A stretch of 64,000 bases of DNA from Escherichia coli (GCF_003334355.1 NZ_QOWP01000004.1), one strand, 5' to 3'. Shown: positions 2,994-22,230, numbered from the stretch's first letter. A program made the numbers and translations. Notes: generated by a model from the letters alone, not told the origin.

Positions 2994-3775
2994 TTGAATT
3001 ATTATTTCCCGGTTGGTTAGCCGGGATCATGCTCGCCTGTGCCGCGGGTCCGCTGGGTTCGTTTGTAGTCTGGCGTCGTATGTCTTATTTCGGTGATACG
3101 CTGGCTCATGCCTCATTACTTGGCGTCGCGTTTGGTTTGTTGCTGGACGTGAATCCATTCTATGCGGTGATTGCCGTTACGCTGCTGCTGGCGGGCGGTC
3201 TGGTATGGCTGGAGAAGCGTCCACAGCTGGCGATCGACACGTTATTAGGGATTATGGCGCACAGTGCCCTGTCGCTGGGCCTGGTGGTCGTGAGTCTGAT
3301 GTCTAATATTCGTGTTGATTTGATGGCTTACCTGTTCGGTGATTTGCTGGCAGTGACGCCAGAAGATCTCATCTCTATTGCGATTGGCGTGGTCATCGTG
3401 GTGGCTATTTTGTTCTGGCAATGGCGCAATTTGCTGTCAATGACGATAAGCCCGGATCTGGCGTTTGTTGATGGTGTGAAATTACAGCGAGTGAAATTGT
3501 TGTTGATGCTGGTGACGGCATTGACGATTGGTGTAGCGATGAAATTTGTCGGTGCGTTGATTATTACTTCGTTGCTGATTATTCCTGCTGCTACTGCGCG
3601 TCGCTTTGCCCGCACGCCGGAACAGATGGCTGGTGTCGCTGTTTTGGTGGGGATGGTGGCAGTGACTGGCGGTTTAACCTTTTCCGCGGTTTACGATACG
3701 CCGGCGGGTCCGTCGGTGGTGCTATGTGCGGCACTGTTATTTATTCTCAGTATGATGAAAAAGCAGGCCAGCTAA
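2990..3775 (+). CDS. znuB: Zinc ABC transporter permease ZnuB
   Basis: 261-aa hydrophobic multi-TM ORF; 4-bp overlap with znuC stop (translational coupling). Confidence 0.95.
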
Positions 3776-3792
3776 TCTATCGCTGAACACAT

Positions 3793-4112
3793 TTGTCGGA
3801 TGCGGCGCGAGCGCCTTATCCGACCTACGGTTCGCTATCTCTGGCTGGCCTGATAAGACGCGAACAGCGTCGCATCAGGCACACTGCCAATGTCGGATGC
3901 GGTGCGAGCGCCTTATCTGACCTACGGTTCGCTATCTCTCGTAGGCCGGATAAGACGCGAATAGCGTCGCATCAGGCACACTGCCAATGTCGGATGCGTC
4001 GCGAGCGCCTTATCCGAGCTACGGTTCGCTATCTCTGGTAGGCCGGATAAGACGCGAATAGCGTCGCATCAGGCACACTGCCAATTTCGGATGCGGTGCG
4101 AGCGACCAATCC
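3793..4112. repeat. BIME/REP cluster: about 3.3 tandem copies of a roughly 97-bp composite REP unit
   Basis: Unit tgtcggatgcggcgcgagcgccttatccgacctacggttcgctatctct..gccggataagacgcgaatagcgtcgcatcaggcacactgccaa repeats at about 3795, 3891, 3989, 4085 with point differences; contains inverted REP palindromes. Confidence 0.85.
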
Positions 4113-4115
4113 GAC

Positions 4116-5129
<1,014 letters not shown>

Positions 5130-5134
5130 TTACC

Positions 5135-5746
5135 TCATAACGCGGCGCGTAGGGCTTCGCGAATTAATGTTTCACTGCTGGCGTCAGGGCGAGCGATTTT
5201 GCTCACCATGCGGCTTGCTTCTTGTGGTTTATAGCCCAGCGCCACCAGCGCGGCAACCGCTTCCTGTTCAGCATCGTCGGTTGCCGGGCTGGCAGGTGAT
5301 GTGAGTACCAGGTCGGCGGCTGGCGTAAAGAGATCGCCATGCAGACCTTTAAATCGGTCTTTCATTTCAACAATCAAGCGTTCGGCGGTTTTTTTGCCAA
5401 TACCCGGCAGTTTCACCAGCGCCCCCACTTCTTCACGCTCAACGGCATTAACGAACTGCTGCGCTGACATTCCGGAGAGGATCGCCAGCGCCAACTTCGG
5501 GCCGACGCCGTTGGTTTTGATCAACTCTTTGAACAACGTGCGCTCTTGTTTATTGTTAAAACCGTACAGCAGCTGCGCGTCTTCACGCACCACAAAGTGG
5601 GTGAAAACGATCGCTTCCTGTCCCGCTTCAGGGAGTTCATAAAAACAGGTCATCGGCATATGCACTTCATAGCCTACGCCGCCCACTTCAATTAACACCA
5701 GCGGGGGTTGTTTTTCAATGATGATGCCTCTGAGTCTGCCTATCAC
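5135..5746 (-). CDS. ruvA: Holliday junction DNA helicase subunit RuvA
   Basis: 203-aa [18 protein letters not shown]...; immediately upstream of ruvB. Confidence 0.96.
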
Positions 5747-5797
5747 ATGACGCTCCTGCGTAATGAATCAAAGATAATGCTGTATGATAAAAAAATG

Positions 5798-5813
5798 CTG
5801 GATAGATATCCAG
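5798..5813. promoter_or_regulatory. LexA (SOS) box of the ruvAB promoter
   Basis: Perfect palindrome CTGGATAGATATCCAG (CTG-N10-CAG) about 50 bp upstream of ruvA start. Confidence 0.6.
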
Positions 5814-6020
5814 CGAAGGATGAAGAAAACTTGCGAGGTGTCTCGATGATCTGAAAAATGGCACAGTATAATTTATTCTACAGGTTATTTTGGAAGCAAA
5901 TATTTTAATATTACATATTCAGTGAAAAAATGCGTAATAAAAATATACATTGCGCCTCCTGAAAAAATAAATTTTTTATGCTATTACGTATATTCGTATC
6001 TATTTCAATGGAATGACAAC

Positions 6021-6623
6021 GTGAATATTAATTACCCTGCTGAATATGAAATTGGAGATATCGCCTTTACATGTATAGGTGCTGCCTTATTTGGTCAAAT
6101 ATCAGCTGCATCAAATTGTTGGAGTAATCACGTCGGGATCATTATCGGTCATAACGGTGAAGACTTCCTGGTTGCAGAAAGCCGGGTCCCCCTTTCAACC
6201 ATCACCACGCTATCTCGTTTTATTAAACGTTCTTCTAATCAACGCTATGCTATAAAGCGATTAGACGCTGGGCTGACAGAACAACAAAAACAACGAATTG
6301 TTGAACAGGTTCCCTCCCGGCTACGCAAACTTTACCACACCGGTTTTAAATACGAATCTTCGCGCCAGTTCTGTTCAAAATTTGTTTTTGATATTTATAA
6401 AGAAGCGCTATGTATTCCGGTGGGTGAAATAGAGACGTTTGGAGAATTGTTAAATAGCAATCCGAATGCAAAACTCACTTTCTGGAAATTCTGGTTCCTG
6501 GGTTCTATTCCGTGGGAGCGTAAAACCGTCACGCCAGCCAGTTTGTGGCATCATCCGGGTTTGGTGTTGATTCATGCGGAGGGAGTGGAAACGCCTCAGC
6601 CGGAACTGACCGAGGCGGTATAA
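6021..6623 (+). CDS. yebB: YebB, YaeF/YiiX-family permuted papain-like protein (200 aa)
   Basis: ORF frame 5922..6623; conserved start [13 protein letters not shown] at GTG 6021 (alternative in-frame start at 5922); AT-rich gene. Confidence 0.8.
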
Positions 6624-6624
6624 C

Positions 6625-7146
6625 TTAACGCAGTCGCCCTCTCGCCAGGTTCAGCCGCGATTCGCTCATCTGCATCGCATTCTGACTAACGTGGCAGTGG
6701 GTGATGGCAATCGCCAGCGCATCGGCGGCATCCGCCTGTGGATTAGCGGGCAGTTTCAGCAAGGTGCGGACCATATGCTGCACCTGGCTTTTTTCGGCAC
6801 TACCAATACCTACCACCGTTTGCTTTACCTGACGTGCCGCGTATTCAAATACTGGCAACTCCTGATTCACCGCCGCCACAATCGCCACGCCGCGCGCCTG
6901 GCCCAGTTTCAGGGCTGAGTCAGCATTCTTTGCCATAAAGACTTGTTCAATGGCGAAATAATCAGGCTGGAACTGGGTGATGATTTCCGTCACGCCCGCA
7001 TAGATGAGTTTCAGACGAGACGGTAAATCATCCACTTTGGTGCGTATGCATCCGCTACCCAGGTAGGACAGTTGCCTACCTACCTGGCGGATGACGCCGT
7101 AGCCGGTCACGCGCGAACCCGGATCAATGCCGAGAATAATAGCCAT
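6625..7146 (-). CDS. ruvC: Holliday junction resolvase RuvC (173 aa)
   Basis: ORF-track frame; conserved start [12 protein letters not shown] at second Met. Confidence 0.94.
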
Positions 7147-7180
7147 CACGCGTCTCCGTTTTGCTGTTTAGCAGGCCTCA

Positions 7181-16801: not shown

Positions 16802-17902
16802 TCACTGTTTCTCGGTAATATCTTTGGCGTTGTACTGGAAATACCGCGTTAAAATGTCCAGTTCGTTTTCGCTCATGCTGGTTCGTGCCCCCATTCCTTT
16901 GGCAATGGACGGCCACGCATTGACGGTGTAATGGTCGGCGGCAATAGGGGCATGACAACCAGCGCAATAGGTATCGTCAAGTTTTTCAGCGTATTGCCAT
17001 AGCGGTTTACGGTCCGCTAATGCGGGATCGGTAAGCGCACCCTGTAAAGACGCCTGACGCCATTGATTGCCGTATTCGTCAGCCTGCCATTCCCCGTTTA
17101 CCGTGAGCGCCTTGATACCTTCTTCACTTAATGTGGCTAGCGCCAGCCGTTGACCTGCCGCCAGGTAGAGCGTGTTTTCACTGCCCTGCATTTGATAACC
17201 CTGCAACAGAACGATCGGCTGTTTGCCACTGGCATCAACGACGGTGAGATCGGTACCAGGATTCACGGTAGCCAGCTCGCCTATGCGAGAAGTTTTGAAA
17301 GGATAAATATGTGCGCCATTAGTCACTGAAGTAGCGGTCTGACTTTCCAGCTCATGCGCCGCGTTGTCATCCATTTTTATTTCTGGCGGAAAATGGGCAA
17401 TGCCTTTATGACAATCGATACAGGTTTCGCCGCCCTTTTGTGCTTTGTTATGCATTTTCTGCGCAGATTCACTTTGCGAGGCAATATCCATGGCATCAAA
17501 AGAATGGCAACTACGGCACGTTGCAGAGTCAGTTGCTTTTAATTCTTTCCATACTGTTTCGGCCATTTCCTGGCGATGAGTTTCGAACTTATCGTCACTG
17601 TCTATTTTGCCGCTAACAAATTCATGATAAATATCTTTAGATGCTTTTAATTTAGCAAATAAATAATCCATCCCTGACTTTGGAATATGGCAATCGGCAC
17701 ATTCCGCACGTATCCCTTTCTGGTTCGAAAAGTGGACAGTTCCCTGATATTCCTCAAAAGGTTTACTCATCGAGTGGCAGGAAAGGCAAAATGCTGTATC
17801 CGACGTTTTATGTAAGGCTTTTTGCGCCAGCAATAACCCGCCGCCACCAACCACAACCGCTATCAGCAAAAACAATAACCCAATGCGTTTTTTCCCTCGC
17901 AT
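16802..17902 (-). CDS. torY: Membrane-anchored pentahaem cytochrome c TorY
   Basis: 366-aa ORF with N-terminal TM and multiple CxxCH haem motifs (CLSCH, CADCH, CRSCH, CIDCH, CAGCH). Confidence 0.94.
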
Positions 17903-18210
17903 AGATTCCTCTAAATAAATTCCAGAACACCGAAATCATTGTATAATTAAATACACAACGAATTAACCGCTTGCATAACTCGGCACAACACTGCCTGAAA
18001 TAATCGATAAAGAATATGATTTATTACAATGTAATCATTAATTGCTAAGGAATAACCCAGTTGCTATTTAGAATATATATTTATCAGTTTTAGCAATTTA
18101 AATCCCATAATCAATGTGAATATAAAAAATATTTTTAGCACAACGCTATGCGCACTGTCACCCGCTCAACAGATCACGGTTATCGTTCGTTTTTTATACT
18201 GCTCAGGGAT

Positions 18211-19831: not shown

Positions 19832-21565
19832 GTGAATATTCAGGCTCTTCTCTCAGAAAAAGTCCGTCAGGCCATGATTGCGGCAGGCGCGCCTGCGGAT
19901 TGCGAACCGCAGGTTCGTCAGTCAGCAAAAGTTCAGTTCGGCGACTATCAGGCTAACGGCATGATGGCAGTTGCTAAAAAACTGGGTATGGCACCGCGAC
20001 AATTAGCAGAGCAGGTGCTGACTCATCTGGATCTTAACGGTATCGCCAGCAAAGTTGAGATCGCCGGTCCAGGCTTTATCAACATTTTCCTTGATCCGGC
20101 ATTCCTGGCTGAACATGTTCAGCAGGCGCTGGCGTCCGATCGTCTCGGTGTTGCTACGCCAGAAAAACAGACCATTGTGGTTGACTACTCTGCGCCAAAC
20201 GTGGCGAAAGAGATGCACGTCGGTCACCTGCGCTCTACCATTATTGGTGACGCAGCAGTGCGTACTCTGGAGTTCCTCGGTCACAAAGTGATTCGCGCAA
20301 ACCACGTCGGCGACTGGGGCACTCAGTTCGGTATGCTGATTGCATGGCTGGAAAAGCAGCAGCAGGAAAACGCCGGTGAAATGGAGCTGGCTGACCTTGA
20401 AGGTTTCTACCGCGATGCGAAAAAGCATTACGACGAAGATGAAGAGTTTGCCGAGCGTGCACGTAACTACGTGGTAAAACTGCAAAGCGGTGACGAATAT
20501 TTCCGCGAGATGTGGCGCAAACTGGTCGACATCACCATGACGCAGAACCAGATCACTTACGATCGTCTCAACGTGACGCTGACCCGTGATGACGTGATGG
20601 GCGAAAGCCTCTACAACCCAATGCTGCCAGGAATTGTGGCGGATCTCAAAGCCAAAGGTCTGGCAGTAGAAAGCGAAGGGGCGACCGTTGTATTCCTTGA
20701 TGAGTTTAAAAACAAGGAAGGCGAACCGATGGGCGTGATCATTCAGAAGAAAGATGGCGGCTATCTCTACACCACCACTGATATCGCCTGTGCGAAATAT
20801 CGTTATGAAACACTGCATGCCGATCGCGTGCTGTATTACATCGACTCCCGTCAGCATCAACACCTGATGCAGGCATGGGCGATCGTCCGTAAAGCAGGCT
20901 ATGTACCGGAATCCGTACCGCTGGAACACCACATGTTCGGCATGATGCTGGGTAAAGACGGCAAACCGTTCAAAACCCGCGCGGGTGGTACAGTGAAACT
21001 GGCCGATCTGCTGGATGAAGCCCTGGAACGTGCACGCCGTCTGGTGGCAGAAAAGAACCCGGATATGCCAGCCGACGAGCTGGAAAAACTGGCTAACGCG
21101 GTTGGTATTGGTGCGGTGAAATATGCGGATCTCTCCAAAAACCGCACCACGGACTACATCTTCGACTGGGACAACATGCTGGCGTTTGAGGGTAATACCG
21201 CGCCATACATGCAGTATGCTTACACGCGTGTATTGTCCGTGTTCCGTAAGGCAGAAATTAACGAAGAGCAACTGGCTGCAGCTCCGGTAATCATCCGTGA
21301 AGATCGTGAAGCGCAACTGGCAGCTCGCCTGCTGCAGTTTGAAGAAACCCTCACCGTGGTTGCCCGTGAAGGCACGCCGCATGTGATGTGTGCTTACCTG
21401 TACGATCTGGCTGGTCTGTTCTCTGGCTTCTACGAGCACTGCCCGATCCTCAGTGCAGAAAACGAAGAAGTGCGTAACAGCCGTCTGAAACTGGCACAAC
21501 TGACAGCGAAGACGCTAAAGCTGGGTCTGGATACGCTGGGTATTGAGACAGTAGAGCGTATGTAA
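19832..21565 (+). CDS. argS: Arginine--tRNA ligase
   Basis: 577-aa ORF starting at GTG 19832; HIGH-type motif HVGHLRS; class I aaRS. Confidence 0.97.
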
Positions 21566-21584
21566 TCGATTTTTCGTGAGAGTA

Positions 21585-21619
21585 AAGCCTGATCAGGGTT
21601 ACCTGATCAGGCTTTTTTA
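21585..21619 (+). terminator. Rho-independent terminator of argS
   Basis: Hairpin aagcctgatcagg-gtta-cctgatcaggctt followed by TTTTTT. Confidence 0.85.
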
Positions 21620-21720
21620 TTGCCATCTAAATGTATTCTGAAAATGGACATGCCATTGTTTTCTCACTGTTGGATAAGAGGCCAGAAGCGTAATATCCGG
21701 CCCCAGGGAAACGATAACGG

Positions 21721-22230
21721 TTGAATTTAAGGAATACCGCAGTGTTTAAATTTCTTGTATTAACATTAGGCATTATCTCTTGCCAGGCTTACGCAGAAGA
21801 TACGGTTATAGTAAACGACCATGACATTTCAGCCATCAAAGATTGTTGGCAAAAAAATTCAGATGATGATACTGACGTTAACGTGATCAAATCATGCCTG
21901 CGACAAGAATACAATCTCGTCGATGCGCAATTAAATAAAGCCTATGGTGAAGCTTATCGTTATATAGAACAAGTGCCACGCACAGGTGTAAAAAAACCTG
22001 ATACCGAACAACTTAACTTGCTTAAAAAATCACAGCGAGCCTGGCTGGATTTTAGGGACAAAGAATGTGAATTAATCCTTTCAAATGAGGACGTTCAGGA
22101 TTTAAGTGACCCTTATTCTGAATCAGAATGGCTCTCATGTATGATCATACAGACCAATACGCGAACTCGCCAGTTGCAGCTATACCGTAACTCTGAAGAT
22201 TTTTATCCAAGCCCTTTGACAAGAGGATAA
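21721..22230 (+). CDS. yecT: DUF1311 (LprI-like) secreted protein YecT
   Basis: ORF with N-terminal signal peptide ...FKFLVLTLGIISCQAYA; AT-rich; start ambiguous (TTG 21721 or GTG 21742 with AAGGA RBS). Confidence 0.75.
   Translation: MNLRNTAVFKFLVLTLGIISCQAYAEDTVIVNDHDISAIKDCWQKNSDDDTDVNVIKSCLRQEYNLVDAQLNKAYGEAYRYIEQVPRTGVKKPDTEQLNLLKKSQRAWLDFRDKECELILSNEDVQDLSDPYSESEWLSCMIIQTNTRTRQLQLYRNSEDFYPSPLTRG

Follow-up and report, generated by a model that had tools for sequence, protein, structure and literature searches.

The window analysed here is a stretch of 64,000 nucleotides from the Escherichia coli chromosome, in which the genes around yebB follow the order znuB, REP repeats, ruvB, ruvA, yobI, yebB, ruvC, yebC, nudB and aspS. 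The genes ruvB (4116-5126), ruvA (5135-5746) and ruvC (6625-7149, stop codon at 6625-6627) are encoded on the minus strand, as is yobI (5885-5950), a gene of 21 codons that is annotated in RefSeq and in MG1655. The yebB gene is located on the plus strand at 6021-6623; it has 200 codons and a GTG start, preceded by a weak GGA Shine-Dalgarno sequence at 6010-6012. A 1151-nt query across the locus found a match in all 5,426 of the 5,426 complete E. coli genomes, covering at least 80% of the query in 5,391 of them, and the RefSeq annotation under this match comprises ruvA, yobI, yebB and ruvC. In MG1655, yebB is b1862 (NP_416376.2, 603 nt, the 200-residue form) and yobI is b4677. Current annotation and the literature already contain the gene yebB and its family, as well as the curated start and the LexA box of this locus.

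YebB is a circularly permuted NlpC/P60 cysteine enzyme of the YaeF/YiiX type, in agreement with the permuted papain-like family to which the earlier note had assigned it. The protein matches Pfam family PF05708 with an E-value of 2.6e-44 over residues 10-184 of the 200-residue form (residues 43-217 of a longer, 233-codon frame discussed below), and it reaches 403 bits with the NCBIfam YebB equivalog NF008547, for which the cut-off is 227. At the sequence level it resembles the YiiX structure 2IF6 with an E-value of 3e-17 and 28% identity. A first AlphaFold model generated from 27 close homologues had a poor pLDDT of 67; the model used here, generated from 114 sequences, reaches 94.9. Foldseek superposed this model on 2IF6 with TM-scores of 0.82/0.90 and an rmsd of 2.1 Å, as expected for a papain-like fold; the model also matches the PPNE protein of B. 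cereus (3KW0, E ~1e-6), a distant relative with 16% identity to YebB. The catalytic residues reported for YiiX, His49, Glu64, Tyr115 and Cys128 (PMC3142127), align with His37 (6129-6131), Glu53 (6177-6179), Tyr105 (6333-6335) and Cys118 (6372-6374) of YebB. None of the four varies among the 27 close homologues, and in the 114 sequences, which extend down to 26% identity, each is conserved to at least 90%. YebB and YiiX share the fold and the permuted order of His, Glu, Tyr and Cys, but YebB scores only 76 bits against the YiiX equivalog, missing its cut-off of 216, and has its own equivalog, NF008547. In addition, YebB starts right at the catalytic domain; the chain in the YiiX structure has a few residues ahead of it. 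Full-length YiiX has an N-terminal leader that is missing in YebB. Comparisons among strains gave 22:5, 15:2 and 39:13 synonymous to non-synonymous codon differences in yebB; the clear excess of synonymous changes shows purifying selection on the gene.

No signal peptide or lipobox was found in YebB, unlike in several distant homologues, which have signal or lipoprotein leaders. From this we infer that YebB acts in the cytoplasm, where access to the cell wall is unlikely. This bears on whether YebB could be a peptidase or amidase with peptides or peptidoglycan as its substrate instead of an enzyme directed at lipids or acyl groups. The NlpC/P60 superfamily is best known for its peptidoglycan hydrolases, and the names given by Pfam ('amidase', peptidase family C92) and in EcoCyc style point in the same direction. 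Against this stand, besides the missing leader, the structural relatives. YiiX, the nearest structure, was crystallised with a fatty acid in its hydrophobic S1 pocket (Xu et al., PMC3142127), and other permuted members act as acyltransferases or phospholipases (PMC7387801, PMC12994826). The characterised permuted members LRAT/HRASLS, Tox-Act1, TseH and LnsA act on acyl chains; together with PPNE they have the permuted papain-like core and the Cys/His dyad in common with YebB, and an acyl-enzyme mechanism has been proposed or shown for them. A peptidase or amidase function thus appears unlikely to us. Our best guess, made by analogy with these proteins, is that YebB is a cytoplasmic thiol acyl-hydrolase or acyltransferase: Cys118 would form an acyl-thioester as in other permuted members, and the enzyme would hydrolyse or transfer a fatty-acyl group (for example of an N-acyl amino acid, a lipopeptide or a phospholipid) and not cleave peptidoglycan. 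That the substrate class is indeed acyl or lipid we put at roughly even odds. YebB differs from the lipid-directed permuted enzymes in having no secretion-system, immunity-gene or lipoprotein-pathway neighbours. Its neighbours are different in every bacterial family examined, and genomic context is therefore uninformative about the substrate. The only phenotype found in the literature searched is a long lag phase of a yebB transposon mutant (PMC5996734).

The start of yebB had been described as ambiguous in the earlier note, which placed the conserved N-terminus at GTG 6021 and pointed out a second in-frame start at 5922. The longer frame does exist: from GTG 5922 to the stop at 6623 it has 233 codons, and GTG 6021 lies 33 codons downstream of its beginning, at the conserved N-terminus. 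The ambiguity itself did not withstand comparison, for homologues, strain variation, Shine-Dalgarno sequences and annotation all back 6021. When the 233-residue translation was searched against 5.8 billion proteins, no homologue contained the 33-residue extension; the maximum coverage of the query by any match was about 86%, which corresponds to the 200-residue part. Among 27 aligned homologues, 25 start at the column of residue 1, and the two longer ones have unrelated extensions. The codon equivalent to 6021 is ATG or GTG in E. albertii, the divergent Escherichia L009, Salmonella, two Klebsiella, two Pseudocitrobacter and one Citrobacter, and it is preceded by a GGA-type Shine-Dalgarno sequence in these relatives. 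Upstream of it their frame ends after 4-25 codons without a start codon; the one exception is a metagenome assembly of Pseudocitrobacter, which has a GTG 42 nt upstream.

Variation within E. coli points the same way. Of seven strains compared, five have GTG and two have ATG at codon 6021, whereas codon 5922 is GCG in two of them (PK8275 and ST131), and in ST80 a 1-nt insertion between the two positions puts 5922 out of frame. The calculated Shine-Dalgarno energies amount to +1.9 kcal/mol for 5922, that is, no such sequence, and to -3.3 kcal/mol for 6021, a weak one. In the 200-residue form the Pfam domain starts at residue 10, and positions 5922-5950 overlap the first ten codons of yobI in antisense orientation. 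RefSeq and the MG1655 annotation both use 6021, and the version suffix of NP_416376.2 suggests that curators have already shortened the record. On this comparative evidence we judge GTG 6021 to be the start of yebB and the upstream extension (5922-6020, plus strand, 33 codons) to be untranslated.

Most likely, yebB is transcribed from a sigma-70 promoter of its own about 30 nt upstream of GTG 6021. A genomic SELEX peak and a consensus assignment have led to the prediction of CTGAAA-17-TATTAC as the yebB promoter, a predicted and not a mapped start (PMC3946193). In the window this promoter would occupy 5959-5987 on the plus strand, with CTGAAA at 5959-5964, a 17-nt spacer and TATTAC at 5982-5987. 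The implied transcription start is near 5994, and the predicted transcript therefore excludes 5922. The same study likewise predicted, without a mapped start, a yobI promoter TTGTCA-15-TACAAA (PMC3946193). Here the corresponding site is found on the minus strand at 5993-6019 (TTGTCA at 6019-6014, a 15-nt spacer and TACGAA at 5998-5993), the -10 element being TACGAA in this strain and TACAAA in K-12. The predicted yobI promoter overlaps the promoter and leader of yebB.

The yobI gene was absent from the earlier note although it is located between the LexA box and yebB. Its product matches NCBIfam family NF038179 over residues 1-21 of 21 with 59.2 bits (cut-off 33), and it is preceded by a strong Shine-Dalgarno sequence, AGGAGG at 5956-5961 in plus-strand coordinates, with a duplex energy of -10.3 kcal/mol. 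yobI is limited to E. coli; the start of the gene has been lost by deletion in L009 and reads ATA in one strain, and among strains it shows more non-synonymous than synonymous differences. YobI is not named in the E. coli small-protein papers searched, and a paper on small proteins in Mg starvation mentions neither yebB nor yobI. We also considered whether yobI is an N-terminal relic of the gene for a 228-residue membrane protein present in E. albertii and Salmonella. This was rejected, as positions 5817-6006 have no DNA homology there. A search of the ruvA-yebB spacer for known RNA families found none; the only matches were of the REP-type naRNA4, upstream of ruvB.

The LexA box claimed at 5798-5813 is present. 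Its sequence, CTGGATAGATATCCAG, is a palindrome, is followed on the ruvA strand by seven T, and reads in reverse complement as TTCGCTGGATATCTATCCAGCATTT, the LexA box published for ruvA (PMC3009722 Table 4). The 17 other published boxes were combined into a position weight matrix, which gives known sites 13.4-28.7 bits. The box at 5798-5813 is the best match in the 64-kb window with 18.6 bits, the runner-up reaching 12.3. The bare pattern CTG-N10-CAG occurs 29 times in the window and for that reason proves nothing on its own. The box can fold into a hairpin of -10.6 kcal/mol (z = -5.9). A consensus scan revealed a promoter-like site for ruvAB at 5784-5812 on the minus strand (-35 TGGATA at 5812-5807, -10 TATCAT at 5789-5784); the predicted -35 element falls within the LexA box, and the sequence is conserved upstream of ruvA in a comparison of 79 Enterobacterales loci. 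In 66 of these 79 loci the LexA palindrome lies 65-83 nt, mostly 66-69 nt, before the GTG of ruvA, and in one more the distance is 104 nt; in the remaining 12 no palindrome was found within 110 nt of the ruvA start. The great majority of the loci without yebB have the palindrome, at about 67 nt before ruvA. The fixed distance to ruvA in species that lack yebB indicates that the operator is older than the yebB insert and positioned for ruvA. In sequence and position the box is identical to the published ruvAB operator of E. coli, and we regard it as just this operator, which by the comparison of loci predates yebB.

The box had also been described as directly beside yebB, and this does not hold: yobI intervenes and the start codon is 208 bp away. 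The only promoter proposed for yebB (5959-5987, predicted) begins about 146 bp from the box. A credible LexA box does lie in the regulatory region (18.6 bits, in the intergenic region shared with ruvA), though it is the known ruvAB operator, and it neither overlaps nor abuts the predicted, unmapped promoter of yebB. Could yebB nevertheless belong to the SOS regulon through this box, with divergent promoters under one operator and perhaps also a 233-residue form starting at 5922? The box and yebB share one intergenic region, and a regulon-association study based on expression compendia and a shared site predicted yebB as a LexA target (PMC2689187); this prediction is the sole positive hint of SOS control. 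The frame from 5922 is open in six of the seven E. coli strains, with GTG at 5922 in five. Moreover, a longer transcript covering 5922 could arise from the perfect TATAAT at 5867-5872, which has been conserved in the divergent Escherichia lineage. A second CTG-N10-CAG at 5851-5866 abuts this TATAAT. As a second LexA box it was rejected: it scores 2.9 bits, compared with at least 13.4 for real boxes, ranks 51st in the window and is variable among strains. The matrix scan found no other credible LexA site near yebB. Nor is yebB mentioned in the text of a UV tiling-array paper on induced genes, and the supplements searched contain no entries for yebB, yobI or ruvA. Together with the distances given above, the fixed spacing of the box to ruvA in species without yebB, and a codon 5922 that is lost or frameshifted in some strains, has no Shine-Dalgarno sequence and would add residues seen in no homologue, these data leave the shared-operator and long-form explanation very little chance, and SOS control of yebB is unlikely.

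yebB is indeed more AT-rich than the flanking ruv genes, as had been noted from the sequence. Its GC content is 0.439 (GC3 0.393), compared with 0.538 for ruvA, 0.530 for ruvB and 0.556 for ruvC; yebC has 0.524. This value falls into the lowest 8.4% of the 603-nt windows of the 64-kb stretch (mean 0.503, sd 0.043). The ruvA-yebB spacer (5747-6020) is lower still with 0.31. We collected 80 loci with close RuvC relatives, one genome per species, located RuvC, RuvA, RuvB and YebB in each, and counted spacers in the 79 Enterobacterales loci that contain both ruvC and the ruvA start. The spacer was at most 100 nt in 55 loci and 101-226 nt in 13, all without yebB, and at least 764 nt in 11. Altogether, 68 of the 79 loci thus have a short spacer of 72-226 nt without yebB, which confirms the proposal that yebB was inserted between ruvAB and ruvC and shows that the gene is absent from the orthologous junction. 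Such empty sites consist of the ruvC stop, a linker of about 12 nt (e.g. TGACAAATCAGG), GGCTGGAT-N4-ATCCAGCC, seven T, TATGAT and ruvA.

yebB fills the junction in Escherichia, Salmonella, Pseudocitrobacter, Citrobacter sp. FP75, Klebsiella sp. RHBSTW-00484 and, with a frameshift, K. spallanzanii, and in every intact copy its stop is one base from the ruvC stop. On the ruvA side the junction comparison places the boundary of the insert only within 5815-5830; homology to relatives with an occupied site stops between 5813 and 5829, depending on the species. The insert, from about 5815-5830 to 6624, is about 0.8 kb long and carries yobI and yebB. As a whole it has a GC content of 0.40, with flanks of 0.52-0.56, and Salmonella, Klebsiella, Pseudocitrobacter and E. 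albertii show the same offset, so that across these Enterobacteriaceae the insert lies 6-14 points below its flanks. No convincing terminal repeats were found at the insert ends, and no mobility genes within it. Phage copies of yebB were not found either, nor was there a copy on any plasmid that is truly mobile: the plasmid records that matched measure 0.25-4.9 Mb, the largest having the size of a chromosome, and all were typed as non-mobilizable. The locus resembles other small AT-rich chromosomal islets at conserved junctions, which probably spread through recombination within the core genes beside them, in being present or absent at one exact junction, in its atypical GC content and in the alternative cargo described below; it differs in that here there is no integrase, tRNA, attachment site or direct repeat and in that the insert in E. 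coli is smaller than 1 kb.

By this comparison, the insert of about 0.8 kb is best explained as a small, old, horizontally acquired segment that entered the ancestral ruvC-ruvA junction after the ruvC stop and ahead of the LexA operator of ruvAB. Recombination within the conserved genes on either side would have spread it, possibly out of a low-GC donor, and yebB would be close to the LexA box merely through the position at which the insert landed. YebB is 74-79% identical between genera in which RuvC is 97-98% identical. Homologues in Providencia and Proteus (about 70% identity) have unrelated neighbourhoods and a GC content equal to the local one, and the homologue in Budvicia is found in yet another genomic context. 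One could instead suppose that yebB was ancestral at the junction and was lost from most Enterobacterales, its AT-richness being due to local mutation bias or H-NS-type constraints; its presence at one and the same junction in several genera, always 1 nt from the ruvC stop, the missing mobility genes and repeats, and the decay in Klebsiella (the frameshifted K. spallanzanii copy and a 3' relic only in K. oxytoca) speak for it, but we see hardly any chance for it, because repeated deletions would not recreate the same empty site, with its tight spacer of 72-100 nt and common 12-nt linker, near-identically over many genera including the outgroups Erwinia, Pantoea, Rahnella and Edwardsiella, and because occupied and empty lineages are interspersed (both states occur within Citrobacter and within Klebsiella), YebB has diverged far more than RuvC, the Morganellaceae and Budvicia homologues sit in unrelated contexts with matching GC, and the junction is used by other cargo as well.

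At least four unrelated types of cargo were found at the junction: yebB with or without a membrane protein, a gene pair in the Kosakonia group, a 220-226-residue protein, and a four-gene set in E. coli AST85. The Kosakonia group carries genes for a regulator-like protein of 273-280 residues and a dehydrogenase-like protein of 289 residues, with a GC content of about 0.6. In K. oxytoca a protein of 220 residues is found together with a relic of the yebB 3' end, and proteins of 220-226 residues are the cargo type in K. oxytoca and Citrobacter. An additional membrane protein of 228-231 residues is encoded beside yebB in E. albertii, Salmonella and Citrobacter FP75. One of the four genes at the AST85 junction encodes an 80%-identical copy of the YebB family. 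Searches of YebB and the alternative cargo for defence-system or curated-family matches found none, except for a YebB-family protein and a PstS-family protein. That the ruvC-ruvA junction holds different cargo in different lineages is one modest new point of this analysis.

In the empty sites additional G-C pairs lengthen the operator palindrome and a run of seven T comes after it; this combination of LexA palindrome and T-run looks like a terminator for ruvC. Cassettes of the yebB type bring their own conserved hairpin, which is placed right after ruvC. According to the computed fold this hairpin lies at 6592-6617 on the minus strand, the strand of ruvC, has 9-10 bp and is followed by GUUUC; it begins 8 nt past the ruvC stop and is contained within the last 10 codons of yebB. 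Ten yebB-type inserts preserve it, four of its nine pairs show compensatory changes, and it has been retained in K. oxytoca despite the loss of yebB there. It is a plausible candidate for a terminator shared by the convergent genes ruvC and yebB. Tentatively, and with somewhat less than an even chance of being right, we propose that the ruvC-ruvA junction of Enterobacteriaceae is a recurrent landing and exchange site for small accessory cassettes, which would always be inserted within the roughly 12 nt that separate the ruvC stop from a dual-purpose hairpin. This hairpin may serve as the ruvAB LexA operator and, in empty sites, as a terminator-like structure for ruvC.

Taken together, we consider it quite probable that yebB belongs to an acquired islet, starts at 6021, is expressed from its own promoter beside a LexA box that belongs to ruvAB, and encodes an acyl-directed, cytoplasmic permuted enzyme. 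The practical value of these results is mainly corrective: the 233-codon frame should not be revived, yobI has to be reckoned with, and the nearby SOS operator is no proof that yebB is a member of the SOS response. As a conserved and apparently cytoplasmic member of its enzyme family, YebB may be of interest to specialists. The junction itself represents a tidy natural case of varied cassettes at one exact site beside an operator and terminator-like hairpin.

In species without an insert at the ruvC-ruvA junction, the palindrome of the ruvAB LexA operator, located at 5797-5814 in the window, is longer and consists of GGCTGGAT-N4-ATCCAGCC followed by seven T (L014, a locus with an empty junction, positions 2815-2870, and the other empty-site loci). 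This extended palindrome starts approximately 12 nt downstream of the ruvC stop codon, and folding of the hairpin yielded −21 kcal/mol with a z-score of −5.3. The empty-site palindrome looks like a ruvAB operator and an intrinsic terminator of ruvC in one.

At the 3′ end of the inserted gene yebB a hairpin of 9-10 bp followed by GUUUC is present on the minus strand (6592-6617), 8 nt past the ruvC stop codon and within the final ten yebB codons. All ten yebB-type inserts compared retain this hairpin, and four of its nine pairs show compensatory changes among them. K. oxytoca has lost yebB and still carries the hairpin.

The region between the LexA box and yebB contains yobI, an annotated gene of 21 codons on the minus strand (5885-5950), which is served by a strong AGGAGG Shine-Dalgarno sequence. 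In the loci compared, yobI appears to be confined to E. coli: the divergent Escherichia lineage (L009) has lost the start through a 7-nt deletion. E. coli strain PK8275 has ATA as the yobI start codon, and across six strains the non-synonymous differences in yobI outnumber the synonymous ones. A genomic SELEX study assigned yebB a plus-strand promoter and yobI a minus-strand one, together spanning 5959-6019 (PMC3946193). The proposed promoters overlap back to back and the starts implied by their predicted positions are only about 8 bp apart, thus yebB and yobI may compete for RNA polymerase. The plus strand also carries a perfect TATAAT (5867-5872) that is kept in L009 and in six of seven E. 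coli strains; no good −35 element was found for it. This TATAAT could give rise to a long leader that runs antisense to yobI. A conserved stretch within yobI (5910-5922) and yebB codons 7-11 (6040-6052) form a 13-nt inverted repeat with 92% complementarity, which may be a chance product of AT-rich sequence.

Other lineages carry unrelated cargo between ruvC and ruvA (spacers of loci L018, L041, L043, L042, L026, L069, L008, L002 and L089). Kosakonia and relatives carry two genes there, one regulator-like and the other dehydrogenase-like; a protein of 220-226 residues is encoded at the junction in K. oxytoca and Citrobacter FP75, and a multi-pass membrane protein (228-231 residues) adjoins yebB in E. 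albertii, Salmonella and Citrobacter FP75. The junction of E. coli AST85 holds four genes, one of which encodes a PstS-family protein. The hypothetical cargo proteins had no match in NCBIfam or PADLOC.

Elsewhere in the window, the spacer between znuB and ruvB (3753-4116) is taken up by four REP/BIME-type repeats in tandem; they match Rfam naRNA4 (RF02564) with a top score of 61 bits (3847-3922, minus strand). Three further AT-rich patches (about 17300-18000, 21400-22000 and 37650-38600) have a GC content equal to or below that of yebB, with a minimum of 0.327 near 38050.

In Klebsiella spallanzanii (L033, 990-1469) a frameshift divides yebB into frames of 202 and 80 residues, which makes this copy probably a pseudogene. 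Together with the relic in K. oxytoca, this frameshift suggests that yebB is dispensable in Klebsiella.
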